A stretch of 24,000 bases of DNA, from contig JAIRRJ010000038.1 in assembly GCA_031256035.1 (NCBI GenBank), forward strand, positions 13,059-37,058. The letters are read 5' to 3'. Below are positions 1,055 to 18,213 of the stretch, in pieces. The stretch's first letter is position 1; every line of letters starts with the position of its first letter. The translations under genes and the position numbers were made by a program. Source of the DNA: Treponema sp. Its GTDB lineage: Bacteria; Spirochaetota; Spirochaetia; Treponematales; Breznakiellaceae. Below the pieces are notes generated by a model. The model made no database searches, was not told where the DNA came from, and worked only from the letters and a program-made list of their open reading frames with translations.

Positions 1055-2089
1055 TCACTCATCGCCGCCACCGTTACCCTTCAAATACTTTGCCATATCC
1101 CGATCAAATTGTGAGATATAATCCCTGTCCTGTTTGATGCGAAACTGCTCGTAAACTTCGCCCGCTTTTTTTACGGCTTTATCGTGGGAAATCTGCCCTT
1201 TACCCGGCAGTACACGACGGCGGTTGTTTTTCAGGAACTTATCTGTTTCGTTCAGCCAGTCCTGCATACTCACTGCAACGCCATCCTCCGCCATTAATTC
1301 GGCATAATCAATGAACATTGTTACAAGCCGATTAAGACGGGAAAGTTCATTTTCGTTCAGATAATTTTTGGCGACAGAAATATCCCTTTTCAAAATTTTG
1401 CCGTCAGGCGCGTCCTTCCATGTGGTTAAGCCCATAGTGGGGTGTTCAAGGCGTGCTCGCTCGGAAATCAGCTCTGCCGCAGTTTTTCCTGTTATCGCAA
1501 AATGGAGCTTATTCTGCACAAATGCATAAAACTCTTTGGTGAGATCGCTGTTTTTGTCATAATCATAGCTGCACTGCTCAAATACATCGGCGATTTTTTG
1601 ATATGCCCGCCGCTCGCTGGCGCGGATTTCGCGGATTTTTTCCAGTAACTCATCAAAATAATCCCGCCCAAAGGGCTTGCCGTTTTTTAGCAATTCTTCA
1701 TTGAGGAGATAACCTTTTTGGATATACTCTTTCAGTGTCTGCGTTGCCCACTGGCGGAACCGGGTGGCTTTTTTAGAGTTTACCCGGTAGCCAACGGCGA
1801 TAATGGCATCAAGGCTGTAGAATTGAAGCTCCCGCTCTACACTGCGCTCACCCTCTTTTCGAACTACTCGAATTTTTCGAGTAGTTGCCGTTTCTTCTAA
1901 TTCTTCGGTTCCAAATACTTCCTGTAAATGATAGGTAATAGTATTTGATTCGACATCAAAAAGCTCTGACATTGCCTTCTGGGTCATCCAGAAGGTTTCA
2001 TCCTTGAACACTACATCAACATAAACATTACTGTTTGAGGTGGAGTACAGGGCGATTTTTCCTTCGGATACTTTTATGATGTTACTCAT
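1055..2089 (-). CDS. RhuM-family protein (Virulence_RhuM-type), nested in the type I R-M operon
   Basis: A 344-aa ORF. Blocks [78 protein letters not shown] and SVAKNYLNE match the RhuM family from memory. Its ATG overlaps the hsdM stop (TCAT at 2086-2089). Confidence 0.8.
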
Positions 2090-3630
2090 ACAAGTTTCAC
2101 CTTCTTGAGATTTTCAAGAATGGCCTTGTTCAATTTCTCCTCTTCTTTTAACTGAGCCTCAAATTCCGCCCTTAAACCGGAAAACCGTTCGTTAAAATCG
2201 AAGTCGTCTTCTTCATCGGGAAGCCCCACATACCGCCCTGGCGTAAGCACATAATCCAGTTCCTTCACCCGATCAATATGCACAGAAGCGCAAAAGCCTT
2301 TTATATCCGCATATTTGCCTTTGGTCTTGCGCCATTCGTGATAGGTTCCGGCTATTTTCTGAATGTCATCGCTTGAGAGCTCCCTCGTTCTGCGGTTAAT
2401 CAAATGCCCTTCGTTTCTTGCGTCAATGAATAAAATCTCATCGGTGCGGTTACGGTAACCGCCGTTTGCTTTGTTACGCGATAAAAACCACAAACAGGCG
2501 GGTATCTGCGTATTCAAAAAGAGTTTTGCCGGAAGATTGATGATGCAATCGACAAGCCGCGCTTCGATTAACGCCTTGCGGATTTCACCTTCGCCGGAAC
2601 TTTTAGAGGTGAGAGAACCTTTTGCCAGTACAAAACCGGCTATACCGCCGGGGCTTAAATGATAGAGAAAGTGCTGAATCCACGCATAGTTCGCGTTTCC
2701 GGCAGGCGGTGCGCCGTATTTCCATCTGCCGTCTGTGCGGAGCAGATCACCCGACCAGTCGCTGTCGTTGAACGGGGGATTGGCGATGACAAAATCGGCT
2801 TTCAGGTCTTTGTGCGCGTTATTCAAAAACGAACCTTCATTGTTCCATTTGACCTGTGAGCTGTCGATGCCGCGAATGGCAAGGTTCATTTTTGCCAGCC
2901 GCCATGTTGTCTGGTTGCTTTCTTGTCCGTAGATAGAAATATCGTTGATTTTGCCCTTATGGTTAGAGACAAATTTTTCTGATTGCACAAACATTCCGCC
3001 GGAGCCGCAGCAGGGGTCAAATACGCGGCCTTTGTAAGGTTCGAGGATTTCTACAAGCAGTTCAACAACGCTTCGCGGCGTGTAGAACTGGCCTCCCTTT
3101 TTTCCTTCCGCAAGAGCGAACTCACCAAGAAAATACTCAAACACATGGCCGAGCACATCGGCGCTTCGGGCTTTCGCATCTCCAAGAGCAACATTTCCAA
3201 TAAGGTCGATTAATCCGCCAAGGTTTGCGGGGTCTAAGTTGCCCCGTGCGAATACTTTGGGCAACACATCTTTTAGTGAGGGATTGTCTTTTTCGATTGC
3301 GTCCATGGCATTGTCTACTTCTTTGCCGATGGTCGGCAATTTTGCCTTGGATTGCAGATATGACCAGCGGGCAATTCCGGGGACAAAAAATATATTTTCG
3401 GCTTTGTATTCGTCTTTGTCTTCGGGGTCAGCCCCAGCGTATTCGCCCTTTCCGTCTTTCAGTTTTGCGTGCAGGTCTTCAAAAGCGTCTGAAATGTATT
3501 TGAGGAATATCAGACCAAGGACGACATGTTTATATTCAGCTGCATCGATGTTTTTTCGCAGCTTATCGGCGGATTTCCAGAGTTGTTTTTCGATTGGTTC
3601 ATGAGTGTTGTTTTCTTTGATCTTTGCCAT
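2086..3630 (-). CDS. hsdM: Type I restriction-modification system, N6-adenine DNA methyltransferase subunit M
   Basis: A 514-aa ORF. The HsdM N-terminal domain is present ([35 protein letters not shown]), as are SAM motif I ([12 protein letters not shown]) and catalytic motif IV (VIANPPFN). Confidence 0.95.
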
Positions 3631-3641
3631 ATTGGGTTTCT

Positions 3642-3714
3642 AGCCAAGACGGGGAATCGAACCCCGGACCTGCACATTACGAGTGTGCCGCTCTGCCAAC
3701 TGAGCCATCTTGGC
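3642..3714 (-). tRNA. tRNA-Thr (anticodon CGU)
   Basis: The minus strand folds by hand into a cloverleaf: GCCAAGA TG GCTC AGTTGGCA GAGC G GCACA CTCGTAA TGTGC AGGTC CGGGG TTCGATT CCCCG TCTTGGC T. It has a 7-bp acceptor stem, a TTCGATT T-loop and anticodon loop CT-CGT-AA. CCA is not encoded. Confidence 0.9.
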
Positions 3715-3909
3715 TAAATCTAAGCGCCCCGTTAAGGGGCGTTGATCCCAAAAAATCCAAACAGCCCAGGCACCAGTGATGGTTGCCGTGACCAATTAAA
3801 GCAAGCCTGCCTTTAGGCAGGCGACAGTGCCGCTTCGAATAACGGCTTTAGTGGTTTCTGCAGGAAACCTCCGAACAGCACCGCGTTAGCGGTGTAGATC
3901 ACAAAAAGT
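3715..3909. other. Hairpin-dense, non-coding, GC-rich spacer; candidate structured RNA or stacked terminators, strand unresolved
   Basis: There are five clean short-loop hairpins: 3725-3741 (CGCCCC/GGGGCG), 3769-3787 (bulged), 3805-3822 (GCCTGCC/GGCAGGC), 3853-3869 (GGTTTC/GAAACC) and 3879-3894 (CACCGC/GCGGTG). A weak sixth lies at 3829-3846. No ORF is present. Confidence 0.3.
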
Positions 3910-4215: not shown

Positions 4216-5565
4216 CTAAAAAAACAATTCCACTGCGCCCCTTGACCTTATCTGCAGCAGTGTTACAGAACCGGGACCAAATACTGCTTCAATGTGTGTC
4301 CGGTAAGCGTCCATTGCATCCAGTGGGATGTAGACCTGAATAGTGCCGGCAAAACCGCCGCCGTGAACTCTGCATGCGCCGTGTATTTTTTGCTTTTTGA
4401 AAAAACCCTTGCTCAACGCCAATGCAATACTGATACCCTGTTCTTCGGGGCGAGAATAAACGTTTTGCAGTAATTCCCAGGAAGAGTCTCCGGATTCGTT
4501 GACCAGTTCCAGGTAACGGTACAATGCTTGCTGTTTTGCGGCGATTGTTACAGCGCCGTCCATTTCGCTTAGAGCCGCAGACATGGCGTCCACCCGCGCG
4601 TTTTCTTCAAAAAAATGAAGAGAGCGCAGCAAAGCTCTGTCCCCAAGTTTTTTTCGTATTTCTCTGGCACGGGACAAAACATTTTCCTTTTCCAGTTCCC
4701 CAAGTACGGATTTGCCCAAAAAAGCCGCCACCCCTTTCATTTCCGCCGGAATTGACGCGTAATCTGCGGTCAAATCGGCGTGACTGCCGCCTGTGTTCAC
4801 CACGCAGAGGGCGAAACCGGCGGCGGCAAGATCGAAATTGATCTGTTTTACTGACGGGCGAGCGGCATCGGCAAAATCGACGGCAACAGCGCCGCCTGTG
4901 GCGCAGGCTATCTGATCCATAAGACCGCATGGTTTTCCAAAATATGTATTTTCGGCAATCTGACCGATTTGCGCGATTTCCAGGGGACAGAGCTGTCCTT
5001 CACCGTACAAAGAATCAAAAATACGGCCAAAAAGCACTTCCACTGCCGCCGATGAAGAAAGCCCCGAACCCGGATGCACTGTTGAGATTGCATTGGCTGA
5101 AAACCCGCCCGTTATGCGGTTCAGCTCAGCGGCAATTCCCCTGACTAGAGCTTCGGTCATGCCTTCTTCTTCCGGTTTTGGCTGCAAGTCAGGTGCGCCG
5201 GAAGAATTTGTCAATTTCACTTTTACATCAGGATAACCGGCGGAACGAAAGAACACAGTATTGTCTTTTCGTTTCCGCACAATGGCGACATTATCCAATT
5301 GAATGGATGCCGCCAGAATTTTACCCCGGTTATGGTCGGTATGATTGCCGCCCAGTTCGGTTCTTCCAGGGGCGCTGAATACCCGAAGATTGCCGTCACA
5401 AAGTTCCGTTTCGGGAAAGCCGTCCGTCCCACTTTTCAGCATTTCCGTCACAAGCGCCCTGTAACGCAAACGGGCAGCCGCTGCTTCCTTCTTCCCGTAA
5501 AGCTCAGAAAAGATTTCCGTGCCGCTTTCTGAATCAATTTTTGTCAGAAGTTCATTTTCAGTCAT
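4216..5565 (-). CDS. Galactokinase-family GHMP kinase
   Basis: A 449-aa ORF. It carries the galactokinase signature region (FSAPGRTELGGNHTDHNRGKILAASI) and the GHMP ATP-binding motif (PGSGLSSSAAVEV). Confidence 0.75.
   Translation of the reverse strand: MTENELLTKIDSESGTEIFSELYGKKEAAAARLRYRALVTEMLKSGTDGFPETELCDGNLRVFSAPGRTELGGNHTDHNRGKILAASIQLDNVAIVRKRKDNTVFFRSAGYPDVKVKLTNSSGAPDLQPKPEEEGMTEALVRGIAAELNRITGGFSANAISTVHPGSGLSSSAAVEVLFGRIFDSLYGEGQLCPLEIAQIGQIAENTYFGKPCGLMDQIACATGGAVAVDFADAARPSVKQINFDLAAAGFALCVVNTGGSHADLTADYASIPAEMKGVAAFLGKSVLGELEKENVLSRAREIRKKLGDRALLRSLHFFEENARVDAMSAALSEMDGAVTIAAKQQALYRYLELVNESGDSSWELLQNVYSRPEEQGISIALALSKGFFKKQKIHGACRVHGGGFAGTIQVYIPLDAMDAYRTHIEAVFGPGSVTLLQIRSRGAVELFF
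4633..4644 (-). repeat. Iterated 12-mer GGGGACAGAGCT, exact copy
   Basis: The top strand reads AGCTCTGTCCCC. The copy lies inside the kinase CDS and encodes GDRA; it is preceded by TT as in intergenic copies. Confidence 0.9.
4983..4998 (+). repeat. Iterated 12-mer, exact copy, extended into a mini-palindrome
   Basis: GGGGACAGAGCT occupies 4983-4994. The following GTCC gives GGACAG-AG-CTGTCC (4985-4998). The copy is inside the kinase CDS and encodes QLCP on the sense strand. Confidence 0.9.
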
Positions 5566-5591
5566 AAAAACGCCTCTGTATTGTCAATTTC

Positions 5592-6173
5592 TCATCCGGC
5601 TTTCCGGTAGATCGAAAGGTAATCAATAAAAGATGCAATTGAAAAGATAACGGAAATAATGAAGATAATAATGGCGCCAGTTTTAAAATATGGGAAAAGA
5701 AACTCGAAAATTGCCAAGCGTTGAATGCTGACGGCGAGGAGGGCGGCTCCTCCGGCAATGATGTAGGTTACGGTTTTTATTTTTCCACCCAGCCGGGCGC
5801 CCAGGGCAATACCTTTTTTCAGCATCAAATTGCGGATAAAAAGGATGCTGAATTCGCGGTAAATGACCAACAAAAAGAGAAGCGCGGGAAAAATCCTGTC
5901 AATTACAAAACACAGGAAGCAGGTGATTTGCATGAGAGTATCGGCAAAGGGATCGAAGAGTTTGCCAAAATCGCTCACTTCGTTGTTTTTACGGGCGACT
6001 ATGCCGTCCAGCAAATCGGTTACCTGCGAGACGATAAAAATTAGCCAAAGGACAGGCACAGTCCAAGCTGCGCCGGCAAACAATGAGGGGAAAAAGCCGG
6101 GTAACAGATAGACGATAAAAAACACAGGAGCGAGGATTATCCTGGAAAAAGTCAGCTTATTTGCTAGGCTCAT
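5592..6173 (-). CDS. pgsA: CDP-alcohol phosphatidyltransferase (phosphatidylglycerophosphate synthase-like)
   Basis: A 193-aa polytopic ORF. It has the CDP-alcohol phosphatidyltransferase motif D-x2-DG-x2-AR...G-x3-D-x3-D (TDLLDGIVARKNNEVSDFGKLFDPFADT). Confidence 0.8.
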   Translation of the reverse strand: MSLANKLTFSRIILAPVFFIVYLLPGFFPSLFAGAAWTVPVLWLIFIVSQVTDLLDGIVARKNNEVSDFGKLFDPFADTLMQITCFLCFVIDRIFPALLFLLVIYREFSILFIRNLMLKKGIALGARLGGKIKTVTYIIAGGAALLAVSIQRLAIFEFLFPYFKTGAIIIFIISVIFSIASFIDYLSIYRKAG

Positions 6174-6213
6174 GGTTAATTTTGACTTTTGGGTCTAAAT
6201 GTGTCAATTACTT

Positions 6214-6265
6214 GGGGACAGAGCTTGCGGCAGGAACGAATTGTTTTGGAATTGGGGACAGAGCT
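6214..6265 (+). repeat. Direct pair of the 12-mer (6214-6225 and 6254-6265), both exact
   Basis: cTTGGGGACAGAGCT, then 28 nt, then aTTGGGGACAGAGCTcaaaaaaaa. The pair lies in the pgsA/NUDIX divergent intergenic region with 40 bp start-to-start spacing. Confidence 0.92.
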
Positions 6266-6311
6266 CAAAAAAAATATGTACTAAAAAGCAATAAAACGTT
6301 ACTTTATTTCC

Positions 6312-6920
6312 ATGGACGAAAAAAAACTAATATGGATGGAAAAAGGGCGTAAACAGGTTCTTGATAACAAGGTATTCTCAGTATGGGAATCCTATTGTAT
6401 CCCGCCCAAATCTCACTCCGGCGGCTTGAAAACCTTTTCGATAATTGATGCCAAAGACTGGGCTATTGTTGTGCCGGTAATCAAAAACCCCAAAGGCAAA
6501 CAATTTGTCATGGTGTGGCAATGGCGGCATGGTTCGCGGAGCATGAGCCTGGAGTTTCCGGGGGGCGTTTTTGAACCCGAAGAAAATCCTGAGACGGCAG
6601 CAGTCAGGGAATTACAGGAAGAAACCGGCTACTTGCCGGGGAAAATTGAAAAAATCGGGGAATTCAGCCCCAATCCGGCAATTATGTCAAACAAGGTTCA
6701 TTTTTTTCTTGCTGAGGAACTTAGCGGAGCCGGTAAACAAAATCTGGATGAAGATGAATTTGTGGAAGTTGCTCTGGTTGATACCTCCGAGGTTATCCAA
6801 GGCATGGGGAAACCACCTTACGTCCACGCGCTTATGGGTACTGCTTTGGCTTTATATTGTTCAAGGATTGAGTTGTTCGAAAACATCGTACCAATTACAC
6901 AGTTTCCGAACAACTCATAA
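6312..6920 (+). CDS. NUDIX hydrolase (ADP-ribose pyrophosphatase-like)
   Basis: A 202-aa ORF with a Nudix box: GGVFEPEENPETAAVRELQEETGY. Confidence 0.8.
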   Translation: MDEKKLIWMEKGRKQVLDNKVFSVWESYCIPPKSHSGGLKTFSIIDAKDWAIVVPVIKNPKGKQFVMVWQWRHGSRSMSLEFPGGVFEPEENPETAAVRELQEETGYLPGKIEKIGEFSPNPAIMSNKVHFFLAEELSGAGKQNLDEDEFVEVALVDTSEVIQGMGKPPYVHALMGTALALYCSRIELFENIVPITQFPNNS

Positions 6921-6926
6921 TTATAT

Positions 6927-7703
6927 TTAAGGAGCCTTGTAGGTTCTATTTGGATCCCACATGCCTTGCCGGGCTTCGCCCTTTATGGAGGGAATATCCA
7001 ACACCATACCGGGTTCAATCAGATCGGGATTGTCCGGTTGGGGCATTTTTGATTTATTTGCTTCATATAGAGTTTTCCATTTCCACGCATCTCCGTAAAC
7101 CCATGGATAACCAGCGATATTCCACAAGCAATCCTTAGTTAATGCCCAAGGCCTGACAGTATACTGGCTTGGCAGAGCGTCTCCGGCTTGTCTTGGCGGG
7201 GCTCCGCTTTCGATATATGCCAGAATTTCAATGGATTTGGTTGCCGCAGTTATGGCCGCGTTCCAGTCCTCATCATAATAGGCGGCAATACTTGTTTCAT
7301 AATAAGCTTTACCTTCATCGTAGTCATTCGGATATTTGCTGGCGATATTGTTGGAATCCGCCATGTCCAAGTGTTGTTTTGCTGTGCTAATCAGTTGAGA
7401 GGCGACATACTCATCCGAAAGCTGTGCATAACGGATGGCTTCCTCAGCGAAACCGGCGGAAGCGTCATAATCGCCGTATTCATAGGTTTCCTGAGCCAAT
7501 TTTGCCAACCGCAGGCTTTCCAGATAGAATTCGTTGTTGCGAATTGACATTGAGGAATCATCTTCAGCGGCCCCCGCATAGTATGGCACAAAGTAGAATT
7601 GAGGCAGTTTTAATTCAGGTTCCGGAAGATTATCTCCGGCATAAAGTGACTGGACTGCAATTATTACGATAATTGACAGTATAAAGGAAATTTTTCGGTT
7701 CAT
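6927..7703 (-). CDS. Secreted protein with a C-terminal LysM-like peptidoglycan-binding domain
   Basis: A 258-aa ORF with an N-terminal signal peptide (ISFILSIIVIIAVQSLYA). The C-terminus is LysM-like: YTVRPWALTKDCLWNIAGY...LYEANK...LIEPGMVLDIPS. Its start overlaps the stop of the upstream gene at 7700-7703. Confidence 0.65.
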   Translation of the reverse strand: MNRKISFILSIIVIIAVQSLYAGDNLPEPELKLPQFYFVPYYAGAAEDDSSMSIRNNEFYLESLRLAKLAQETYEYGDYDASAGFAEEAIRYAQLSDEYVASQLISTAKQHLDMADSNNIASKYPNDYDEGKAYYETSIAAYYDEDWNAAITAATKSIEILAYIESGAPPRQAGDALPSQYTVRPWALTKDCLWNIAGYPWVYGDAWKWKTLYEANKSKMPQPDNPDLIEPGMVLDIPSIKGEARQGMWDPNRTYKAP

Positions 7704-8776
7704 CTTAAGTCTCCTTCTATTATTTTTTCAGCCTCCAAGGCTGCTCCATCGCTTTCTCCAATTTTGTCTGTGGCCATTTTTATTATTCCCAAAGCTCTTT
7801 GGCGTTTGTCCTCAGTTTCCTGTCCTGCAACCGCAAAAAGCGCTTCCGCTTCTGTGAAAAGAATGGCGGCATCTTCGTACCTTTCTTCACCTAATGTTTC
7901 TTCAGCCTGAGAGAATATGGCTTCGGCATCACGGTATATGTCGCGGACTGCAATATTCACTTTATTTGACAATGCCCGCTCCCTTTCGGATGAAGCGGTC
8001 TTTCGCCTGTCGCCTGCATAATTGGTCCAGCTATTTGACAATATCATGCTGTAGCGAAGCCCGGCTTCCTCGGCGCTGGCTTCAGCCGCTTTTTTATCTC
8101 CTGCTTCATATTTATCAAGTGCAATAACGGCAATATCATCCGCCTTGTCAAAATTTCCGGGATCATAAACATTAAAGCCCCGATCAATGACTTCCTGCCT
8201 TATCAAGTTAACTCTTGCGCCGACAAGCAGGGTTTTGTATTCATTAATCGCCGCCACGGCAGAATTTCTGGCTGCGTAATAATCTCCGGCTTCATATTGA
8301 TCCAGCGCTGTGAGGGCAATCTCATCCGCTTTTTCCAAATACTCAGGAAAAATACTTGTAAAACCGGAATAGATTAATTCATCTCTGACGGCCATTAATT
8401 CATCTTCTCTGGCCTGGGCATAAAGTTGAACCGTTTTCTTGACCAGCCCGTCGAATTCATCCGCTACAGTGTTAAACAAGGCCGCAGCCCTTTGAACTTC
8501 TTCCGCAGTCGATTTTGGCAGTATACTGGCAGCGCCGTACCGGGCATCAGTAACTTCCCAATCAGTGGGAAAATAGGCCGGACATTCAAAATCAATTGCC
8601 CGTTTTCGAGCTTCATCCGCCCGCGCTTTGGCATCATTTGCTGCATTTTGGGACACCGGCGTTATTCCGCTAAATTCCGGCGGTGTTTCCTCAGGGCTTG
8701 GGGCAGATTTACAGGAAACACCCATAAACACAAGCATTGCCAGTAACAGGAATGCAAAAACAATATTTTTTTTCAT
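7700..8776 (-). CDS. Probable lipoprotein with tandem helical repeats
   Basis: A 358-aa ORF. The signal peptide ends in Cys (LLLAMLVFMGVSC). Internal repeats are visible: EKADEIALTALDQYEAGDYYAARNSA, DKADDIAVIALDKYEAGDKKAAEASA and SQAEETLGEERYEDAAILFTEAEA. Confidence 0.6.
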   Translation of the reverse strand: MKKNIVFAFLLLAMLVFMGVSCKSAPSPEETPPEFSGITPVSQNAANDAKARADEARKRAIDFECPAYFPTDWEVTDARYGAASILPKSTAEEVQRAAALFNTVADEFDGLVKKTVQLYAQAREDELMAVRDELIYSGFTSIFPEYLEKADEIALTALDQYEAGDYYAARNSAVAAINEYKTLLVGARVNLIRQEVIDRGFNVYDPGNFDKADDIAVIALDKYEAGDKKAAEASAEEAGLRYSMILSNSWTNYAGDRRKTASSERERALSNKVNIAVRDIYRDAEAIFSQAEETLGEERYEDAAILFTEAEALFAVAGQETEDKRQRALGIIKMATDKIGESDGAALEAEKIIEGDLR

Positions 8777-8899
8777 AACCGCTCCTTATAGAAACTGGTA
8801 TTTCTGGTTCTTCGATTGAGTATACATCTGTTTGTACGATAATTACAAGCCTGATTTTTATGTTTTGGAAAAAAGCAAATAATTGAAAACCCGCCGCAA

Positions 8900-8943
8900 G
8901 GGGACAGAGCTAAAATGAAAATCAGCCACAAAGGGACAGAGCT
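8900..8943 (+). repeat. Direct pair of the 12-mer (8900-8911 exact; 8932-8943 AGGGACAGAGCT)
   Basis: Both copies are followed by A-runs (GCTaaaatg and GCTaaaaaac). Spacing is 32 bp. The pair lies in the divergent intergenic region between the lipoprotein and PC4-like genes. Confidence 0.9.
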
Positions 8944-9090
8944 AAAAAACCTATCAACAAAAACAAATCCAATCATGGTTTAGAACATACTTTTGAAATA
9001 ACAGCCTAAAATCCGCTCAGTAAAAATGTCTGAGGCAACTATTCCATGAATCGGCATTTTGGAATAGCCTCAATATATAGTGAGGTTTTT

Positions 9091-9324
9091 ATGGATGAAA
9101 TCAAATTTGACATTGTTAAGCATTTTGGGATTATTTCTTCGGAAAAGAGCGGCTGGAAAAAAGAACTGAATTTAGTATCGTGGAGCGGCAGAACCCCAAA
9201 ACTGGACATCAGGGACTGGGCGCCGGAGCATGCAAAAATGGGTAAGGGCGTTACCCTTACCGAGGGAGAAGCGGCTCAATTGGCGGAATTGCTGGTTTTT
9301 GCGCTTGCGAAGCAGGAAGGCTGA
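9091..9324 (+). CDS. PC4/YdbC-like ssDNA-binding family protein
   Basis: The track ORF starts at 9046. I prefer the ATG at 9091, which is preceded by GTGAGG. MDEIKFDIVKHFGIISSEKSGWKKELNLVSWSGRTPKLDIRDWAPEHAKMGKGVTLTEGEA matches the YdbC family from memory. Confidence 0.65.
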   Translation: MDEIKFDIVKHFGIISSEKSGWKKELNLVSWSGRTPKLDIRDWAPEHAKMGKGVTLTEGEAAQLAELLVFALAKQEG

Positions 9325-9350
9325 GTTTTTGGAAGGCTATAATTTGACTA

Positions 9351-9397
9351 AGCTCTGTCCCCAATTGCTAGATTTGGTAAATTTCAGCTCTGTCCCC
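9351..9397 (-). repeat. Direct pair of the 12-mer (9351-9362 and 9386-9397), both exact
   Basis: AGCTCTGTCCCCAATtg, then AGCTCTGTCCCCAATgt, with 35 bp spacing. The pair lies in the convergent gap between the PC4-like and oxidoreductase genes. Confidence 0.92.
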
Positions 9398-9412
9398 AAT
9401 GTGTTGTTTAGA

Positions 9413-10411
9413 TCAATACCTTTGAACCGTTTCCCATTTACCCGTTTCAGCGGATTTGAAAAGCGCGTCCAGTGCCGCCATATTAGCAATTGCATCTGAA
9501 ACAGGTGTCGGCATTTCGGTTTTTTGAATGACGCTTTCTGAAAAAGCGTCAAATTCCAGAAGGTATTGATCGGCGTTTTCCGTTTCAATCAGTCGCTGCC
9601 CCACACCGGTGGATACGGTAACCTTGCCCGGAATATCAGGGTACATATTAAAGGGGATCTCTATTGAAAGACTGCCGCCGGTCCCAATGGCGGTGACCCT
9701 CTGACATGGGTACATTTGGGTGCAAACGGTGAAAGTCGAAGCTCTGTCCCCGCCAAAATCAAGAATTCCTGATGCTAAGGCATCCGTCTTAAAAACTTGA
9801 TCTCTTACCAAAGTACATATTGCTCTGACAGGCTCACTCCCAAATAAAAACCGGGCACTTGAGACTGCATAGCAGCCAATGTCATAGATTGCTCCGCCTC
9901 CTGTATCAGTTTTGTTGCGTATATTGTTGGCATCTTTGTTCATGTATGAAAAATGGCAATTTACCGACATTAAGCCACCAATTTCGCCAACGCCTACAAT
10001 TTCTTTTGCCCTAATCCACTGAGGATGGAAACGGTACATAAAAGCCTCCATTAAGGGGACAGAGCTTTTCTGGCAATATGCGGCGGCTTCAACCGCTTCT
10101 GTAGCGTTTAAACATAGCGGTTTCTCACAAATTACTGGTTTTCCCGCATCAGCAGCCTTCTTTATGTATTCCAAATGAAGATGATTGGGCAGTGGGATAT
10201 AGACAAAATCCACATCAGTGTCGGCAAGCAGCGCCTCGTAAGAGCCGTAAATTTTCGAAAAATGTGAAGCTTTGGCAAATTCTTCAGCTTTTGCTTTATC
10301 TCTGGATGCAAGAGCATAAGGTTCCACCATTTTGGAAGATTTTAGAGGAGCGGCTATTCTCAACGCATAATGCCCGGAACAACCCAGAACGCCAAGCCGT
10401 AGTTTTTTCAT
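9413..10411 (-). CDS. Gfo/Idh/MocA-family NAD(P)-dependent oxidoreductase
   Basis: It has a Rossmann-type N-terminus (MKKLRLGVLGCSGHYA) and the EKP motif (VICEKPL). I chose the start at 10411, which has a GAGAGG RBS, rather than the longest ORF starting at 10459. Confidence 0.85.
   Translation of the reverse strand: MKKLRLGVLGCSGHYALRIAAPLKSSKMVEPYALASRDKAKAEEFAKASHFSKIYGSYEALLADTDVDFVYIPLPNHLHLEYIKKAADAGKPVICEKPLCLNATEAVEAAAYCQKSSVPLMEAFMYRFHPQWIRAKEIVGVGEIGGLMSVNCHFSYMNKDANNIRNKTDTGGGAIYDIGCYAVSSARFLFGSEPVRAICTLVRDQVFKTDALASGILDFGGDRASTFTVCTQMYPCQRVTAIGTGGSLSIEIPFNMYPDIPGKVTVSTGVGQRLIETENADQYLLEFDAFSESVIQKTEMPTPVSDAIANMAALDALFKSAETGKWETVQRY
9740..9751 (-). repeat. Iterated 12-mer, exact copy
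   Basis: Inside the oxidoreductase CDS; encodes GDRA in the sense frame. Confidence 0.9.
10055..10066 (+). repeat. Iterated 12-mer, exact copy
   Basis: Inside the oxidoreductase CDS; the sense strand reads AGC TCT GTC CCC = SSVP. Confidence 0.9.
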
Positions 10412-10491
10412 TTGTAACCTCTCATTGCATCGCGCGAACGATGTGATTTTACAGAACATCTCCGCAACGCGGGGAGACGAAAACTCCTTGA

Positions 10492-10566
10492 ATTTGGGGA
10501 CAGAGCTTAAAAATCTTACTTGAACATATCACAAAAAAGCAAAAAAATCGAGCTCTGTCCCCAAAT
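10492..10566. repeat. Inverted pair of the 12-mer with perfect 16-bp arms
   Basis: ATTTGGGGACAGAGCT (10492-10507), a 43-bp A-rich spacer, then AGCTCTGTCCCCAAAT (10551-10566). The pair lies in the oxidoreductase/groEL divergent region. Confidence 0.92.
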
Positions 10567-10653
10567 GTACCCTTTAAGGTTGGACATCACTTTTCCACCG
10601 GAAAACGCTTCCCCCTATTGCCGATTTTGCAGTAATTTAGTATTTTATATTAA

Positions 10654-12417
<1,764 letters not shown>

Positions 12418-12442
12418 GGACTAATAACGAATCGTAAGTCTT

Positions 12443-12476
12443 GAGAGGCTGCCTAAAAAGGCAGCCTCTTTTTTTA
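12443..12476 (+). terminator. Rho-independent terminator of groEL
   Basis: GAGAGGCTGCC-taaaaa-GGCAGCCTCT is followed by a TTTTTT run, 26 nt after the groEL stop. It overlaps the stop of the convergent transposase gene. Confidence 0.8.
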
Positions 12477-12983
12477 CCTTAATCCATGTTCAGGTAAATA
12501 TTCCAAGACTAAAGATTCCGGCGCATCAGTAATATCCGCTACCCCATGGTGATGATGCCATAATCCGCCAAATCTCCACATCCATGAACTATCAACCAGT
12601 TGCGCATAGACCGGATTTTCATCGATGTAGATAAATACCCGCAGAAAATCTACCATTCCAGCGATGATTCGAGAATAAAACCGCTCTCCCCATACATGAC
12701 CATTCATGTGATGCTTCCGATTCCAAGCCATTGCAAAAACACTGAGAATCCATTGCATAATTCGGGAAAGGGATTCATTGCTGCCCGGCTTAATCAGTAG
12801 ATGGAGATGGTTGTTCATAATGCAGAAATTCTTGATTTGAAAACGGTATTTCTTTTTTGCCCGCTTGATAACCGTTAACAAAAGCAATTTTTCTTCATCT
12901 GGTAATAAAATCATCTCACTGCGATTAATCCTGGCAGTCACATGATACTCTGCTCCGTCGCGGAGCATTCTTGGTAAACGCAT
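12474..12983 (-). CDS. IS200-like Y1 (HUH) transposase, RAYT-type, solitary copy
   Basis: A 169-aa ORF. It has an HUH motif (NNHLHLLI) and a C-terminal Tyr motif (FIYIDENPVYAQL). The N-terminal pattern RLPRM...YHVTARINR is typical of COG1943 REP-associated tyrosine transposases. No TnpB partner or IS ends are visible. Confidence 0.75.
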   Translation of the reverse strand: MRLPRMLRDGAEYHVTARINRSEMILLPDEEKLLLLTVIKRAKKKYRFQIKNFCIMNNHLHLLIKPGSNESLSRIMQWILSVFAMAWNRKHHMNGHVWGERFYSRIIAGMVDFLRVFIYIDENPVYAQLVDSSWMWRFGGLWHHHHGVADITDAPESLVLEYLPEHGLR

Positions 12984-13056
12984 ACTTATTATATGGTGCG
13001 CAGATGTATGGCACTTTAGTTTGGTGGATATTTTTTACTTTTTTCAAGCTTTTTTT

Positions 13057-13169
13057 AGCTCTGTCCCCCAATGTTTCGCAGCTTCTTTTTGCTCGATTGA
13101 AACCTTATCCGAACATGTATTGAAAATGGTCTGTCCAAGAAGGTATAATTGTTGCTTGGGGACAGAGCT
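13057..13169. repeat. Inverted pair of the 12-mer (13057-13068 and 13158-13169), both exact
   Basis: tttttttAGCTCTGTCCCCcaat ... gcTTGGGGACAGAGCTaaaaaag. The pair brackets the promoter of the 13208 gene. The left copy lies 74 bp upstream of the RAYT-type transposase start. Confidence 0.9.
13120..13149 (+). promoter_or_regulatory. Sigma70-like promoter for the 13208 gene
   Basis: TTGAAA (13120-13125), an 18-nt spacer, then TATAAT (13144-13149). The 12-mer copy at 13158-13169 would lie at about +1 to +14 of the transcript. Confidence 0.5.
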
Positions 13170-13207
13170 AAAAAAGCATCGAAATTCGTAAAAACTGGAG
13201 AAAAAAC

Positions 13208-13705
13208 ATGGAAAAATTAAATGTTGACAGTGCTTTTCCATTGACCAATATTCGTGGGATGAATGAATCCAGTGCAAAAAAGTATGTTCTTGGCTTTATT
13301 ACTACTTTAAAGTTAACCAATAAGCAGATTCAAGATATTGATAAAGATCTATCCAATTGGAATTCCAGGATTGAATTAGCAAAATATAAAGGATTACCTG
13401 ATTTGGTAATAGAAGCTGAAAAAGAAGTGGAGCTTTTGGAAAATAGGCGGCAGCAATTAGTCATGGAGACTGATGAATTCAAAATGCAAATTGAAGATAT
13501 GCTGCGGCAATTACCTCTGCTTCCGGCTTATGAGAGAAACATCGAGCCTGATATGCTTGAAAATGAACTCTTGATTGCTTCCGGTTATCTCCCCGGTGAG
13601 GAAGAAAAAGCTAAAAGTGAACGTTTATTCAGAAAAATGGAAAAAGAAATAACCGCTGAAGCTGCTCTTTCAGAGTTAAAGGCAAAAATGGAGAGAAAAG
13701 ATTGA
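13208..13705 (+). CDS. Hypothetical coiled-coil protein upstream of murJ
   Basis: A 165-aa ORF preceded by a GGAG RBS. It is charged and heptad-rich (EAEKEVELLENRRQQLVMETDEFKMQIEDML). I recognise no family. Confidence 0.55.
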   Translation: MEKLNVDSAFPLTNIRGMNESSAKKYVLGFITTLKLTNKQIQDIDKDLSNWNSRIELAKYKGLPDLVIEAEKEVELLENRRQQLVMETDEFKMQIEDMLRQLPLLPAYERNIEPDMLENELLIASGYLPGEEEKAKSERLFRKMEKEITAEAALSELKAKMERKD

Positions 13706-13722
13706 GCTCTGTCCCCACAGAG
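13705..13722 (-). repeat. Iterated 12-mer, exact copy, in hairpin context
   Basis: AGCTCTGTCCCC occupies 13705-13716 and overlaps the TGA stop of the upstream gene. The extension gives CTCTGT-CCCC-ACAGAG (13707-13722). Confidence 0.9.
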
Positions 13723-13770
13723 GATGCCAATCCTCAATCTGCTGCTTATTCCAGCCAGTCAGTAGATTCT

Positions 13771-15327
13771 ATGGTCCGTCATGGTTCAGCTCTGTCCCTC
13801 CTCACATTGACTTCTCGAATTCTTGGTTTATTTCGAGAAATGACCAAAGCGGCACTTCTCGGCACAAGCGCCCTGTCCGATGCCTTTTCTGTGGCCTTCA
13901 TGCTGCCTAACCTATTCCGCCGACTTTTTGCAGAAGGTTCTATCTCTGTTGCTTTCATTCCTACCTTCAAGGAATACTTGCTGGGAAACGATCGGGAAAA
14001 AACACGGGAGTTTTTATCCTGTATATTCACTTTTCTTACCTTTTTCGTAACTTTAATGGTCATGGCAGGGGTACTTGCGGCTCCGTTCATTGTCCGCTTT
14101 TTTGGCATGGAAGAATATGATGAAACCGTTCTTCTCACCAGGATCATGTTTCCTTTTCTAGGGTTCATCTCACTTGCGGCTTTGTTTCAGGGGGTACTAA
14201 ACAGCCTTCATGTTTTTACTCCATCCGGTCTTGCGCCAATTTTACTGAATATTGTTGTCATTCTCTGCGCTTATGGCTTGAGTCCTTTCACACAAAACCC
14301 TGCTCGAGCAATGGCTGTTGGAATAATCATTGGCGGTTTCCTTGAAGCAGCCATACAGTTTCCTTTTGTTATAAAACGGGGACAGAGCTTCTTTTTTACA
14401 GACTTAAAACGCGCAATCACCAACCCAGGTACAAGAAAAGTACTGCGCCTAATAAGCCCTACCATTATAGGGATGGCCGCTTATCAGCTAAACGACTTGG
14501 TTTCCACAGTATTGGCAGTCAGAGCTGGGGAGGGCGTTGTTTCAAGCATTCAGTATTCGCTACGTCTCCAAGAACTGCTCCTAGGCGTTTTTGCGGTTTC
14601 AATCGGAACCGTTCTGCTTCCTAGTCTTGCCGAATACGCAAAATCCTCTCAATGGGATATTTATAACAAGCGGTTGATTTCAGCAATAGACATCATCGCA
14701 CTCATTACCATTCCGATTACGTTTTTTTCGCTCGTTGAGGGACAGAGCTTAATCCGCCTACTCTTCCAAAACCGTAATTTCGACGAAACTTCAGTCAGCC
14801 TGACCCTCTCGGCTTTTACTTTTCATATGCCTGGTCTTTTTTTCATTGCTCTCAACCGTGTTCTGGCGCCAGCTTTTTATGCTCAAAGCGACACTAAATC
14901 CCCGACTTTGGCCGGTATAATCTCTTTCGTTGCCAATATTTGCCTTGCGGCTATTCTGGTTGGGCCGTTACGGGGCGCAGGCATTGCTTTAGCTCTGTCC
15001 CTCGCCAGCGCAGTAAATACGCTCCTGCTCCTCGTCTTCCTCAGGAGAAACCCCAATGTTGCTCTGGGGACAGAGCTTGGTTTGTCTATGGTTTACGTTT
15101 TGAAACTAATTTTTATTTCCGGATTGGCGGTTGTCCCTGTACGCTTCTTTTCTCCGTTACTACAGGTGTTTTTTGCAAGTAGAGGGCGAATCATCTCCCA
15201 TGGTATGCCTCTGGCAGTTAACGTAATTGTCTATAGCCTGTTTGGGTTTGCCATGCTTGCCCTAACCAGAGATAAAAACCTGTTTGCTCTGGTAAAAATG
15301 CTCAGGAAAAAGAGAAGGGATTCGTAA
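13771..15327 (+). CDS. murJ: Lipid II flippase MurJ
   Basis: The MurJ N-terminal signature is present (TLTSRILGLFREMTKAALLGTSALSDAFSVAFMLPNLFRRLFAEGSISVAFIP), in a polytopic protein of about 518 aa. The track ORF begins at TTG 13702. The ATG at 13771 gives a canonical-length N-terminus, so the start is uncertain. Confidence 0.88.
   Translation: MVRHGSALSLLTLTSRILGLFREMTKAALLGTSALSDAFSVAFMLPNLFRRLFAEGSISVAFIPTFKEYLLGNDREKTREFLSCIFTFLTFFVTLMVMAGVLAAPFIVRFFGMEEYDETVLLTRIMFPFLGFISLAALFQGVLNSLHVFTPSGLAPILLNIVVILCAYGLSPFTQNPARAMAVGIIIGGFLEAAIQFPFVIKRGQSFFFTDLKRAITNPGTRKVLRLISPTIIGMAAYQLNDLVSTVLAVRAGEGVVSSIQYSLRLQELLLGVFAVSIGTVLLPSLAEYAKSSQWDIYNKRLISAIDIIALITIPITFFSLVEGQSLIRLLFQNRNFDETSVSLTLSAFTFHMPGLFFIALNRVLAPAFYAQSDTKSPTLAGIISFVANICLAAILVGPLRGAGIALALSLASAVNTLLLLVFLRRNPNVALGTELGLSMVYVLKLIFISGLAVVPVRFFSPLLQVFFASRGRIISHGMPLAVNVIVYSLFGFAMLALTRDKNLFALVKMLRKKRRDS
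13788..13799 (-). repeat. Iterated 12-mer, one-mismatch copy (AGGGACAGAGCT variant)
   Basis: The top strand reads AGCTCTGTCCCT. Inside murJ; encodes ALSL. Confidence 0.8.
14378..14389 (+). repeat. Iterated 12-mer, exact copy
   Basis: Inside murJ; encodes R-GQS-F. Confidence 0.9.
14738..14749 (+). repeat. Iterated 12-mer, one-mismatch copy (AGGGACAGAGCT)
   Basis: Inside murJ; encodes E-GQS-L. Confidence 0.8.
14991..15002 (-). repeat. Iterated 12-mer, one-mismatch copy
   Basis: The top strand reads AGCTCTGTCCCT. Inside murJ; encodes ALSL. Confidence 0.8.
15061..15077 (+). repeat. Iterated 12-mer, exact copy (15066-15077), in hairpin context
   Basis: GCTCTG-GGGA-CAGAGC occupies 15061-15076. 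Inside murJ; encodes L-GTE-L. Confidence 0.9.
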
Positions 15328-15345
15328 GTTTTTATGTGCTAGTTT

Positions 15346-15357
15346 AGCTCTGTCCCC
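15346..15357 (-). repeat. Iterated 12-mer, exact copy
   Basis: The top strand reads AGCTCTGTCCCCc. It lies in the 45-bp convergent gap between murJ and cysK. Confidence 0.9.
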
Positions 15358-15372
15358 CACGCCACCCAAATT

Positions 15373-16344
15373 TCATTCATCCCACAGCCACGTAGATAAA
15401 TAACGTTCGCCCGTGTCAGGCAGAACCGCCACGATGGTCTTGCCGTTGTTTTCAGGTCGTTTAGCAACAGTCAGCGCAGCTTCGAGTGCTGAGCCGGAGG
15501 AAATGCCTGCAAGAATTCCTTCTTCTTTTGCAAGACGCCGCGCCGTGGTTCCGGCTTTAACTTTGTCAGTCTGGTATATCTCATCTACGACCCTGGAATC
15601 GTACACATTTGGTTGAAAGCCGGCGCCAATGCCTTGAATTTCGTGGGGTTTGCTCTGTCCCCCAGAATCAGCCTGAGTTTCGTGAGAACAGCTCTGTCCC
15701 TCCAAAAGCTGTCCCGAAAGCACTGAGGACAGAGCCGGTTCCACAGCAATCACCTTGACCGATGGTTTTCGGGATTTCAGGTATCTCCCTGCGCCAGTGA
15801 TAGTTCCGCCGGTGCCAACCCCGCAGACAAGAATGTCCACCTTTCCTTCGGTATCGCGCCATATTTCCGGCCCGGTGGTTTTTTCATGGATAGCTGGGTT
15901 GGCGGGGTTGTCGAACTGCCGGAGTACAACGGAATTGGGAATTGAAGCGGCTAGTTCATCGGCGCGGGCAATGGCCCCTTTCATACCTTCGGCACCGGGA
16001 GTCAGTTCCAGTTCAGCGCCCAGAGCTTTCAGAAGTTTTCGACGCTCAACACTCATCGTTTCCGGCATAGTCAGGATAATTCTGTACCCTTTAACTGCCG
16101 CGACACATGCCAGCCCGACACCGGTATTGCCGCTTGTAGGCTCAATAATAGCGGCCCCTTTTTTCAGCTTCCCTTCTTTTTCAGCCGCTTCAACCATCGC
16201 CAGAGCGACACGGTCTTTTACACTGTGAAGGGGGTTAAAACTCTCCAGTTTGACATATACGGCTGCCACACCGTCGTTGATTTTGTTGATTTTTACAAGG
16301 GGAGTATCACCGATAAGGTCGGTTATTTTTTCCGCTCTTGCCAT
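15373..16344 (-). CDS. cysK: Cysteine synthase A (O-acetylserine sulfhydrylase) with an atypically long loop
   Basis: A 323-aa ORF with CysK blocks: SVKDR (PLP Lys), [49 protein letters not shown] and GISSGSA. Confidence 0.93.
15651..15737. repeat. Cluster of four motif-derived units inside cysK
   Basis: The units are GCTCTGTCCCC (15652-15662), aGCTCTGTCCCt (15690-15701), a degenerate GCTGTCCC (15708-15715) and an inverted GGACAGAGC (15728-15736). The first two are exactly 39 bp apart. Confidence 0.88.
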
Positions 16345-16349
16345 ATTTT

Positions 16350-17636
16350 TTACTTTATAGCCTCGAAAGCCTGTTCCAAATCGTAAAGAATATCGTCAAT
16401 GTGCTCTGTCCCCACAGAAAGCCGGATCGTGTTGGGCTTGATTCCCGATTCAAGCAGTTCCTTTTCGCTTATCTGGGAATGAGTTGTTGAAGCGGGATGA
16501 ATCACCGTTGATTTAAGGTCGGCAAGATTAGACACAAGTGAAAAGAGCTTGAGCGCCTCCGAAAAACGCCTCGCCTTTTCAGCGCCGCCGGCGACATCAA
16601 ATGTAAAAACAGAACCCGCGCCGTTGGGGTAGTACCGCTTGTAGAGCTTATGATCGCGGTGTTCCGGCAGGGCTGGGTGGTTTACTTTTTCCGCCTGAGG
16701 ATGAGCCTTGAGGAAATCTACCGCCTTCAGGGCGTTACTGACGTGCCGCTCCATGCGAAGGGAGAGGGTTTCAATCCCCTGCAGGAAAAGAAAAGCGTTG
16801 AACGGGGACAGAGCTGCTCCGGTATCGCGCAGTATGACAGTCCGCGCCTTGATAATATACGCTAAGTTTTTCGCCGCTTCGGTAAAGACAATGCCGTGAT
16901 AGCTGGGGTTCGGCTTTGACAGGCCGGGAAACTTGTCGTTCTGCGTCCAGTCAAATTTGCCGCTGTCAACAATTACGCCGCCGATGGAATTACTGTTGCC
17001 GTTTATGAATTTGCTTGCCGAATGAGTAACAATGTCAGCGCCATAGTCGATGGGGGTCAACAGATAGGGTGTGGCGCAGGTATTGTCCACAATGAGGGGA
17101 ATACCGTGGCGGTGGGCAATGGCGGCAGCGGCTTCAATGTCGATGATGCTGCAATTGGGGTTACTCAGATTTTCAAAAAAAAGCGCCTTGGTGTTGGAGC
17201 GTACCTCTTTTTCAAAATTGGCAATGTCGCTGCCGTCAACAAAAGACACTTCAATGCCCATATCTTTGAATGTATTGGAAAAAAGATTGTAAGTGCCGCC
17301 GTATACCTGCCTGTCAGAAACAATATGATCGCCTGCGCGGGCGATGTTGAGAATTGAGTAGGCGGTAGCCGCCTGGCCGGACGCAAGGGCGAGAGCGGCG
17401 GCTCCTTTTTCCAGAGCGGCAATGCGCTTTTCAAACACATCCGAAGTAGGATTCATCAGCCGGGTGTAAATGTTTCCTGAGTCAGTCAGGGCGAACCTGT
17501 CAGCGGCGACTTTTGAATTGGGATACACAAAAGACGTAGTCTGATAAATGGGAACCGTCCGCGAACCGGTCGCCGGATCTGGTTCCTGCCCGGCATGAAC
17601 CTGCAATGTCTCGAATTTATAATCTCTCGCCGCCAT
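16350..17636 (-). CDS. metY: O-acetylhomoserine sulfhydrylase / aminocarboxypropyltransferase (PLP-dependent, Cys/Met metabolism family)
   Basis: A 428-aa ORF. Supporting blocks are [29 protein letters not shown], the PLP-Lys region [20 protein letters not shown] and the C-terminal [21 protein letters not shown]. It is followed 5 nt later by cysK, so the two likely form an operon. Confidence 0.9.
16402..16418 (-). repeat. Iterated 12-mer, one-mismatch copy (GGGGACAGAGCA), in hairpin context
   Basis: tGCTCTGTCCCC occupies 16402-16413. TCTGT-CCCC-ACAGA occupies 16405-16418. Inside metY; encodes V-GTE-H. Confidence 0.8.
16804..16815 (+). repeat. Iterated 12-mer, exact copy
   Basis: Inside metY; the sense strand encodes AALSP. 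Confidence 0.9.
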
Positions 17637-17737
17637 AAAATATCACCTCTGAACATCAGCTTGTTCCAAAATCTGATCTTTTGCAACTGCCTTTATTTAT
17701 GGCACGGAGATGGAAATTGCTTTAGTTTAGGTTTTTT

Positions 17738-17761
17738 AGCTCTGTCCTGGGGGACAGAGCT
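17738..17761. repeat. Head-to-head motif pair forming a perfect 10-bp-arm palindrome
   Basis: AGCTCTGTCC-TGGG-GGACAGAGCT, preceded by TTTTTT. It is intergenic, lying upstream of metY and downstream of the 17809 gene. Confidence 0.9.
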
Positions 17762-17808
17762 TGGCTGCGGAGTTGTTAACCAGTAATTTCTCTTGAGGAA
17801 AAAAACCA

Positions 17809-18213
17809 CTAGGTTTGAGGTATTTTATGTCCGTGATCTCTCTTTATGAAATGCAGCCTGCCGTTAAATAAAGACGGTAATACATTCTCCGTGTATATTT
17901 CAAGTTCTACTTTTTTGTTAATGCGTTCAATTTCCTTTGTATTTTCATTTTGTTTGACAGTGTACTCAATTACCACTTTTTTCCCGTCCACCGTGTATGA
18001 TCCCATGTAGGCATCCCAGTGCCTGTTTCCCCTGTTGATATTGGCGACATATTCCTGAAACAAAACCTTCCCATGGTCGTCAAACTCATAAATCTGATCC
18101 CCAGCCTCATCAATCCATAAACCAAGTATAATATGTCCTGCTCTGTCCACATTCTGGCTGTATCCGACAACCCCTATTACCAAAAAAAGAATAACTACCG
18201 CTAACTTCTTCAT
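17809..18213 (-). CDS. Small secreted hypothetical protein
   Basis: A 134-aa ORF with a signal peptide (MKKLAVVILFLVIGVVGYS). I recognise no family. Confidence 0.5.
   Translation of the reverse strand: MKKLAVVILFLVIGVVGYSQNVDRAGHIILGLWIDEAGDQIYEFDDHGKVLFQEYVANINRGNRHWDAYMGSYTVDGKKVVIEYTVKQNENTKEIERINKKVELEIYTENVLPSLFNGRLHFIKRDHGHKIPQT

Follow-up and report, generated by a model that had tools for sequence, protein, structure and literature searches.

How does the gene of a housekeeping enzyme come to carry an in-frame block of extra DNA in which one short word recurs? This question is raised by cysK, the gene of cysteine synthase A, in a stretch of 24,000 nucleotides from a contig of a Treponema sp. 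of termite-gut type (JAIRRJ010000038.1, positions 13,059 to 37,058), which is hereafter called the window. In our study, the expansion of a surface loop in CysK is considered to be probably a by-product of a local short-repeat system belonging to a neighbouring gene for a REP-associated tyrosine transposase (RAYT, where REP is a repetitive extragenic palindrome). The motif of this system forms a cloud of copies around the RAYT gene, and segments of cysK bearing it seem to have been duplicated in tandem.

The expanded loop of CysK

The gene and the parts of it which concern the loop are the following.
15373..16344, minus strand: cysK (cysteine synthase A), 323 aa, an intact open reading frame (ORF) with conserved catalytic motifs
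15667..15717, minus strand: lineage-specific insert of 51 bp (17 aa), in one of several equivalent placements
15726..15735, minus strand: inverted motif copy with one mismatch, GCTCTGTCCT, encoding ALS where orthologues have SAS or AAS

The cysK product gave a full-length equivalog match to TIGR01139 (432 bits, cutoff 351) and matched M. tuberculosis CysK1 with E ~1e-111. SVKDR, TSGNTG, GTGGT and SSG were found to be invariant columns among 65 homologues including the window CysK, and the features of CysK membership (the pyridoxal phosphate lysine, Asn-loop, phosphate-loop and Ser motifs) are present. The loop between AVEP and PH, the next conserved block, has 29 residues, as the original prediction had read it. 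The account given there of the DNA was also confirmed. The 10-mer GCTCTGTCCC is present on the plus strand at 15652 and 15691 with a spacing of exactly 39 bp; cysK thus holds two GGACAGAGC copies with 39 bp between them, both encoding GQS, and these are adjoined by a degenerate copy (aGCTGTCCC, 15707..15715, encoding SGQ) and by the inverted copy.

The nearest homologues of CysK were obtained from a search of 5.8 billion proteins, in which the window protein itself was recovered, on a 66.9-kb contig of a Treponema sp. metagenome-assembled genome, and the other top matches had 77-81% identity and were almost all of 306-307 aa. With loop length measured from VEP to His, the short loop of 12 residues was observed in 118 of the 119 nearest homologues measured, and the form longer by 17 residues in the window protein only. 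Among 78 diverse cysK loci, 75 have the 12-residue loop and three have an E. coli-like loop of 18 residues (6 more), which agrees with the two lengths given in the original prediction; the 17-aa insert is found in none of these distant loci. Judged from these sequences, the ancestral loop of this cysK lineage is the short one of 12 residues. Against the nearest homologues, the extra DNA measures 51 bp (17 aa) instead of the 39 bp first proposed and appears as a single 17-residue alignment gap, with SSVL + 17 aa + SGGQSKPH in the window and SPVL-SGGQPGPH in the homologues. Removal of one 13-residue unit, which was expected to restore a loop of E. coli length, leaves 16 residues, neither 18 nor the ancestral 12. 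The alignment of orthologues, which had been suggested as a check, has shown that the insert is lineage-specific, being absent from nearest and distant homologues alike. A Logan assembly contig (SRR14710885) is 100% identical over 5,209 bp, insert included.

The structure of the enzyme was predicted with AlphaFold2 using 65 homologues (mean predicted local distance difference test score, pLDDT, of 77 and predicted template-modelling score of 0.79), and a 12-sequence run (pLDDT 60) was set aside. Residues 205-245, directly after the strand 197-203, form the sole internal segment with pLDDT below 50, and the insert residues have values of 25-33 and no secondary structure in a model that is otherwise confident. 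The insert is therefore predicted to be disordered and to lie in the beta8A-beta9A surface loop of naturally variable length, the surface position which the prediction had proposed to check on a model. This loop probably tolerates length change, because 12- and 18-residue forms both occur naturally and the insert is predicted to be disordered. The view that the insert is in frame, built from the motif and placed in a length-tolerant loop is thus supported. Excision as an intein or intron was rejected, since 51 nt (17 aa) is far too short and no such family was matched.

The motif cloud and its RAYT gene

12474..12983, minus strand: RAYT-type Y1 (HUH) transposase gene, 169 aa, 2.4 kb from cysK
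4634..18149, both strands: motif cloud with 29 copies of GCTCTGTCC and none in the rest of the window (range test P = 1.4e-6)
13048..13178, no strand assigned: REPIN-like inverted motif doublet TTTTTTAGCTCTGTCCCC ... GGGGACAGAGCTAAAAAA upstream of the RAYT gene, with arms of up to ~20 nt

The 10-mer GCTCTGTCCC has 26 exact copies in the 24 kb against 0.86 expected, a count reached in 0 of 100 shuffles, and its 9-mer core has 29; the count for AGCTCTGTCCCC is thus 26-29 depending on the definition, with less than one expected. The consensus of the motif is A-GCTCTGTCC-C-C, and intergenic copies are flanked by T-rich sequence on the 5' side and by AA on the 3' side. Coding DNA holds 17 of the 29 copies (59%), in all six frames, and the other 12 are in the 12% of the window that is non-coding. 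Relative to the RAYT gene the cloud spans -7.8 to +5.2 kb. In 1.3 Mb of control loci, the 9-mer was found 10 times against 9.9 expected (0.008 per kb). Among 8- to 12-mers, the motif ranks first in the window and in the majority of loci with a RAYT gene, the exceptions being L084, L208 and L088. A gathering-threshold scan of the window against Rfam returned tRNA only, placing the motif in no known RNA family, and a literature search on the motif strings returned unrelated primers only.

The RAYT product scored 85.6 bits against the NCBIfam model NF047646 'REP-associated tyrosine transposase' (cutoff 80) and matched Pfam Y1_Tnp PF01797. Its best match in the PDB is E. coli TnpA-REP 4er8, to which the HxH motif (HLH) and the tyrosine of YI..NPV (YIDENPV) are aligned. 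As single-stranded DNA the doublet upstream of this gene folds with -24.1 kcal/mol (z = -4.15), and 0 of 200 shuffles were as stable. The original prediction had overlooked the RAYT gene, as well as the origin by substitution of most intragenic copies; the presence of this transposase gene 2.4 kb from cysK would explain where the motif comes from.

The link between gene and motif was examined in 120 loci from a metagenome scan that asked for two direct motif copies 15-45 nt apart and applied no protein criterion. Many of these loci are motif-dense on both strands, with GC contents of 0.40 to 0.65, and 12 of the 120 contain RAYT homologues, five of them 75-81% identical and seven 52-56%. Exact-sequence look-ups have placed several RAYT-bearing contigs in metagenome-assembled genomes of Treponemataceae, Spirochaetales or Spirochaetia. 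A motif copy in sense orientation (GGGGACAGAGCT) is located 54-112 bp upstream of the RAYT start codon in 13 of 15 loci, and a convergent doublet in 8; an inverted copy downstream of RAYT is seen in L186 and L132, not in the window. RAYT adjoins MurJ in six Treponema-type loci, and a DUF6249 gene with an ECF (extracytoplasmic function) sigma factor in three others; this conserved synteny suggests that RAYT has been inherited vertically and has not entered motif-rich DNA again and again. Dialects of the motif were found to follow the RAYT lineage (L206, L209, L110). From these sequences, the 11-12-nt motif AGCTCTGTCCC[C/T] appears clearly to be the cognate repeat of a RAYT clade across Spirochaetia.

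Some details of the dialects may be added. In L206, position -1 is T and not A. The L209 cloud is written in GGGACAGACC, and the doublet beside its RAYT gene retains GGGACAGAGC. In L110, arrays of GAGGGACAG[GT]G are present upstream of the RAYT gene.

Distance decay in loci fetched by the motif is biased by the retrieval route, and protein-anchored loci were used instead. Six loci (L204-L209) were fetched through the RAYT protein alone, at 60-81% identity and with at most 10 kb of flank per side. GCTCTGTCCC is the top 10-mer in L204, L205, L206 and L207, with 11-23 copies, all near RAYT. The clouds extend over these distances from the RAYT gene:
L204: -1.4 to +2.9 kb
L205: -3.3 to +0.7 kb
L206: -5.6 to +6.4 kb
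L207: -2.1 to +1.0 kb
L209 (dialect): -1.8 to +5.9 kb

A local cloud of the motif or of a one-base dialect, within ~6 kb of RAYT, is thus observed in five of the six protein-anchored loci. Range tests against a uniform distribution gave P = 8e-8 to 2e-4, and 54.7 kb of outer flanks in the RAYT-anchored loci held 0 motif copies. No copy was present either in the five loci, from Treponema or Spirochaetaceae, that hold the nearest cysK homologues, and cysK is not a neighbour in the relatives that have the RAYT-MurJ arrangement; motifs therefore seem to occur in cysK and metY only where these genes are 2.4-4.6 kb from RAYT. In the loci covered, the motif appears clearly to accumulate almost only within a few kb of RAYT, on both strands and in intergenic as well as coding DNA.

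Gain, retention and amplification of motif copies

Within genes, most copies appear from codon comparison to have been made by recoding in place, without change of length. LGDRAL is a conserved peptide of galK that is spelled with GGGGACAGAGCT by the window codons alone, a synonymous change, and at residue 191 of galK KRS has become QLC with the length unchanged. The AALSP and GTEH peptides of metY are conserved, with their codons recoded to the motif. In cysK the recoding has cost residues (SAS to ALS and GGQPG to GGQSK). The codons of the native unit which gave rise to the motif are GGC GGC CAG CCG in L001, L202 and L203.

Once present, the copies seem to be held intact while nearby synonymous sites decay. 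The motif is found at four orthologous MurJ sites in four species that are ~77% identical, and where all four have the same residue, the MurJ codons are identical at 10 of 13 positions inside the motif vs 41 of 323 outside it (P = 6e-7).

Short motif-bearing segments also appear, from the repeats seen in several loci, to amplify in tandem. The acyl-CoA synthetase of L171, a Treponemataceae locus (4994..6871), has five 39-bp units ELKALSPESARVE with the motif in each, and between variants with 97-98% identity the difference in length is exactly one 13-aa unit (625 vs 612 aa). In L186, MurJ (~4850..5160) has a private in-frame C-terminal insert of ~60 aa with four motif-bearing units (FGGQSS...), the first three of which are spaced 33 and 30 bp. 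These two proteins bear out the expectation that motif-bearing in-frame units would be found in other genes, the first of them being strain-polymorphic. Intergenic arrays with a period of 19-20 bp were found in L104, L198, L179 and L160. In the window, a single repeat of this kind stands out:
8884..8947, no strand assigned: 32-bp motif-bearing tandem duplication, Tandem Repeats Finder score 100, all other repeats of the window scoring at most 44

Two further observations concern repeat-rich DNA. The intergenic DNA upstream of the L171 acyl-CoA synthetase holds AGAGCTTAAAGCTCT palindromes. Pure tandem arrays, made of the motif and a spacer of 7-11 nt with periods of 19-20 and 23 bp, are present in contigs of termite-gut type (L104 995..1514, L198 619..730, L113 4644..4990).

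Origin of the extra cysK DNA

The expanded loop was resolved into the following segments.
15628..15666, minus strand: native 39-bp unit containing the motif copy 15652..15661, its GGQS codons recoded to GGGGACAGAGC
15667..15705, minus strand: duplicated 39-bp unit containing the motif copy 15691..15700, with 25 of 39 nt equal to the adjacent native unit
15706..15720, minus strand: partner of a mini-duplication, CTTTCGGGACAG (LSGQ) followed by CTTTTGGAGGGACAG (LLEGQ), holding the degenerate copy 15707..15715

The identity of duplicated and native units is 16 of 30 nt outside the motif, and a match as good as the overall one is rare, at 0.10% when 39-nt windows of any kind are taken and 0.17% when only in-frame windows of genes are. 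In the mini-duplication, direct reading has shown 5 of 6 non-motif bases to be identical, along with a 3-nt indel. As read from these segments, the insert is best described as the sum of a 39-bp and a 15-bp tandem duplication, nested and reduced by one Gly codon, with a net gain of 51 bp. The motif is intact at 9 of 9 positions in both 39-bp units and 47% of the remaining positions have diverged; such intactness has a chance of ~0.003 under equal decay. When the insert was compared by blastn-short with the window and with more than 200 fetched loci, only the 9-15-nt core was shared and neither a donor nor a common flank was found. The insert is thus probably not a copy of a larger mobile element, because nothing beyond the core recurs. 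The original prediction had left open insertion or duplication: the likeness to native codons favours duplication, and the lack of a donor in this comparison speaks against insertion of a mobile element.

Proposed mechanism and alternative explanations

The loop expansion of CysK may be pictured in two steps. Recoding would have created motif copies in cysK, and motif-bearing segments would then have been duplicated in tandem, that is the 39-bp native unit and a unit of ~15 bp (LSGGQ), giving the net 51 bp. RAYT is supposed to bind or nick single-stranded DNA at the motif, with a preference for sites in cis close to the RAYT gene, and this action may bias repair or strand transfer toward making and preserving copies. 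Slippage induced by a nick, or re-joining at a neighbouring copy, could yield the tandem units. Only events in multiples of three in a tolerant loop would pass selection; with its 51 bp in the beta8A-beta9A loop, whose length varies naturally, the insert would be such an event and would for this reason have survived.

A more general reading is possible and is put forward tentatively. A domesticated Y1/HUH enzyme may 'write' its own 11-12-nt motif around its gene, in cis only, where it would recode housekeeping neighbours, keep the copies against decay and trigger in-frame tandem amplification. Such a local, self-reinforcing sequence drive would be distinct from REPIN transposition and from uptake-sequence drive, and conserved across Spirochaetia.

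Several points weigh against a RAYT-driven origin. We infer the binding and cutting of the motif by RAYT from sequence association. The boundaries of a tandem duplication are arbitrary, and the motif as cause is in this respect not separable from the motif as passenger of the cysK duplication. That copies are conserved across species might be due to selection by the host and not to drive. L208 has only two motif copies, one of them at -72, and in the merged region of L178 and L170 the motif is abundant over ~14.5 kb, with no RAYT gene in the ~19 kb covered. The restriction of the motif to the vicinity of RAYT is based on flanks of ~10 kb per side and on no complete genome. In the window, the left boundary of the cloud coincides with a tRNA-bounded island, the cloud ending ~1 kb short of the tRNA-Thr gene that bounds it. 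Finally, the repeat is not an imperfect palindrome of 20-40 nt as in REP/REPIN-RAYT systems, having a 12-nt non-palindromic core without a GTAG or CGTC head; to our knowledge, every characterised RAYT substrate has such a head.

It is unlikely, though several facts would suit it, that the host has selected the motif array as binding sites of a domesticated RAYT (e.g. a local regulatory or structural DNA domain), with copies maintained by selection and the cysK insert produced by neutral slippage between close direct repeats. The MurJ copies kept in four species while synonymous sites decay would be expected from it, the conserved synteny of RAYT is as for domesticated, vertically inherited RAYTs, and the copy fixed 54-112 bp upstream of RAYT is operator-like. 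However, cloud size (2 to 29 copies) and positions vary greatly among lineages, new copies are found in whichever genes adjoin (cysK, metY and galK in this genome only), and they have cost amino-acid changes in conserved enzymes; we know of no function for such a motif array. That cysK underwent plain slippage during replication, or unequal crossing-over, independently of RAYT and with the motif merely inside the duplicated segment, is improbable. The insert does duplicate native codons, a tandem duplication needs no special enzyme, and the loop tolerates length change. Against this, the sole strong tandem repeat in 24 kb carries the motif, in-frame tandem units are motif-bearing in each of three further genes or loci, no such duplication was found in more than 190 motif-free CysK homologues, and the intactness of the motif in both cysK units would be a rare accident.

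Transposition into cysK of a pre-formed miniature mobile element (of REP, REPIN, Rickettsia palindromic element (RPE) or miniature inverted-repeat transposable element type) is considered very improbable. Intragenic REPs and RPEs do insert in frame (PMC3733652) and the inverted motif pair 15691/15726 can form a weak hairpin, but this hairpin lacks significance (z = -1.9), what the insert has in common with other copies is limited to the 9-12-nt core, with no donor or flank match in the window and more than 200 loci, the non-motif part matches adjacent native cysK, and most intragenic copies have arisen without length change. A DNA-uptake sequence, of the DUS type of Neisseria or the uptake signal sequence (USS) type of Pasteurellaceae, with the insert hitch-hiking on uptake bias, hardly deserves credence, being largely refuted by locality. 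It would account for a non-palindromic word of 10-12 nt on both strands at ~1-2 per kb, present in coding DNA in six frames, gained partly by synonymous recoding and common to related species; yet copies would be expected genome-wide, against the motif-free outer flanks and related Treponema cysK loci, and the tight link to RAYT would be left unexplained.

Comparison with known repeat systems

REP/REPIN-RAYT systems are said to have been described by Nunvar in 2010 and Ton-Hoang in 2012. RAYTs are among the most widespread 'domesticated' transposases, and their role is unsettled. As in these systems, the window has a single RAYT-family Y1/HUH gene whose synteny is conserved, the oligomer that is commonest locally flanks this gene, the adjoining inverted doublet folds in single-stranded DNA, tandem repeat clusters occur, and dialects differ between RAYT lineages. 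The differences are considerable as well. The conserved core AGCTCTGTCCCC is not self-complementary and forms hairpins only from two inverted copies, many copies have been recoded and not inserted, and the core is common to Spirochaetia with GC contents of 0.39 to 0.63. By the published descriptions (Bertels & Rainey 2011, PMC3116915; Di Nocera et al. 2013, PMC3733652), each REP is a palindrome headed by GTAG or CGTC, and REPs are scattered at random through extragenic space, whereas 59% of the window copies are intragenic and all of them lie within a few kb of RAYT. On the sequence evidence, this is probably a REP/RAYT system in variant form, with a repeat that is not a palindrome, lies largely inside genes and stays local, and with a mechanism that we infer.

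RPEs were reportedly described by Ogata et al. in 2000, and RPE-1 is of ~100-150 bp. The original prediction had likened the cysK insert to these elements. The likeness is apt as a concept, since tyrosine-transposase-linked repeats here decorate proteins in frame, plausibly in loops, with the ORF kept and the insert in a tolerant surface region; it fails in that no whole palindromic element recurs. Intragenic REPs and RPE-4/6 have been documented (PMC3733652). Such intragenic elements are whole palindromic units or dimers of 20-30 aa or more, whereas cysK shares 9-12 nt and has duplicated native codons. A literature search on RAYT with spirochaetes or intragenic repeats gave nothing specific beyond Di Nocera 2013.

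The motif also resembles DUS and USS: it is of similar length and non-palindromic, it is found in every frame of either strand, related species have it in common, and copies are gained through point substitutions where the codons tolerate them. It differs from DUS and USS (~1 per kb genome-wide) in its local distribution and in its association with a transposase gene instead of competence machinery. It resembles in-frame minisatellites, or variable-number tandem repeats, in having units of 30-39 bp divisible by three in strain-variable number, as in the acyl-CoA synthetase of 625 vs 612 aa; unlike those repeats, which are found in surface or contingency genes, the units are seeded by a transposase-tied motif and are located in housekeeping enzymes.

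A cognate RAYT repeat in the form of a short local word, which invades conserved enzymes and seeds strain-variable in-frame repeats, would depart from the picture of scattered extragenic palindromes. With its local gradient, recoded sites of known ancestors and polymorphic 39-bp units, it may serve as a natural system for testing RAYT action in cis. Motif clouds of this kind can distort protein alignments and create lineage-specific loop insertions, and could pass for uptake sequences or assembly artefacts.

Possible effect on the cysteine synthase complex

In the serine acetyltransferase-binding loop, the residues K217, H221 and K222 of the Arabidopsis enzyme correspond to K221, H225 and K226 of E. 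coli CysK (PMC6829319). One codon of this loop is changed in the window:
15640..15642, minus strand: Glu codon (column K235) in place of the near-invariant Lys of PHK (Arabidopsis K222, E. coli K226, CysE-binding)

At column K235, Lys is found in 90% or more of the 65 homologues, and Glu in the window CysK alone. The loop His is retained, and the insert ends 6 residues before it. It is plausible that the cysteine synthase complex forms differently, and the regulation of cysteine synthesis may be changed, because the insert and the adjoining Lys-to-Glu replacement are situated in the CysE-binding loop.

Other features of the window

A probable genomic island in the left part is bordered by a tRNA gene, and a hairpin and two ORFs lie among the motif copies.
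3641..3715, minus strand: tRNA-Thr(CGU), bordering the probable genomic island
1055..2089: RhuM
2086..3630: type I restriction-modification HsdM methylase
~9091..9324: PC4/YdbC-like single-stranded DNA-binding ORF (Pfam PF02229, E = 3.6e-10), between the direct motif pairs 8901/8933 and 9352/9387
17733..17762, no strand assigned: perfect motif hairpin AGCTCTGTCC-tg-GGGGACAGAGCT, between hyp134 and metY

The restriction-modification gene of the left flank was considered as a source of the motif and was rejected, as it sits in the tRNA-bounded island, which is missing from other motif-bearing loci. Look-ups of the exact GH5, RhuM and DUF5312 proteins, made in order to extend the contig, gave no record. 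The T-run of the hairpin at 17733..17762 is on the wrong side to terminate minus-strand genes. The MurJ ORF begins at TTG, and the motif (13702..13720) encodes its first residues LSSVP; relatives are alike in this respect, and L186 repeats it twice.

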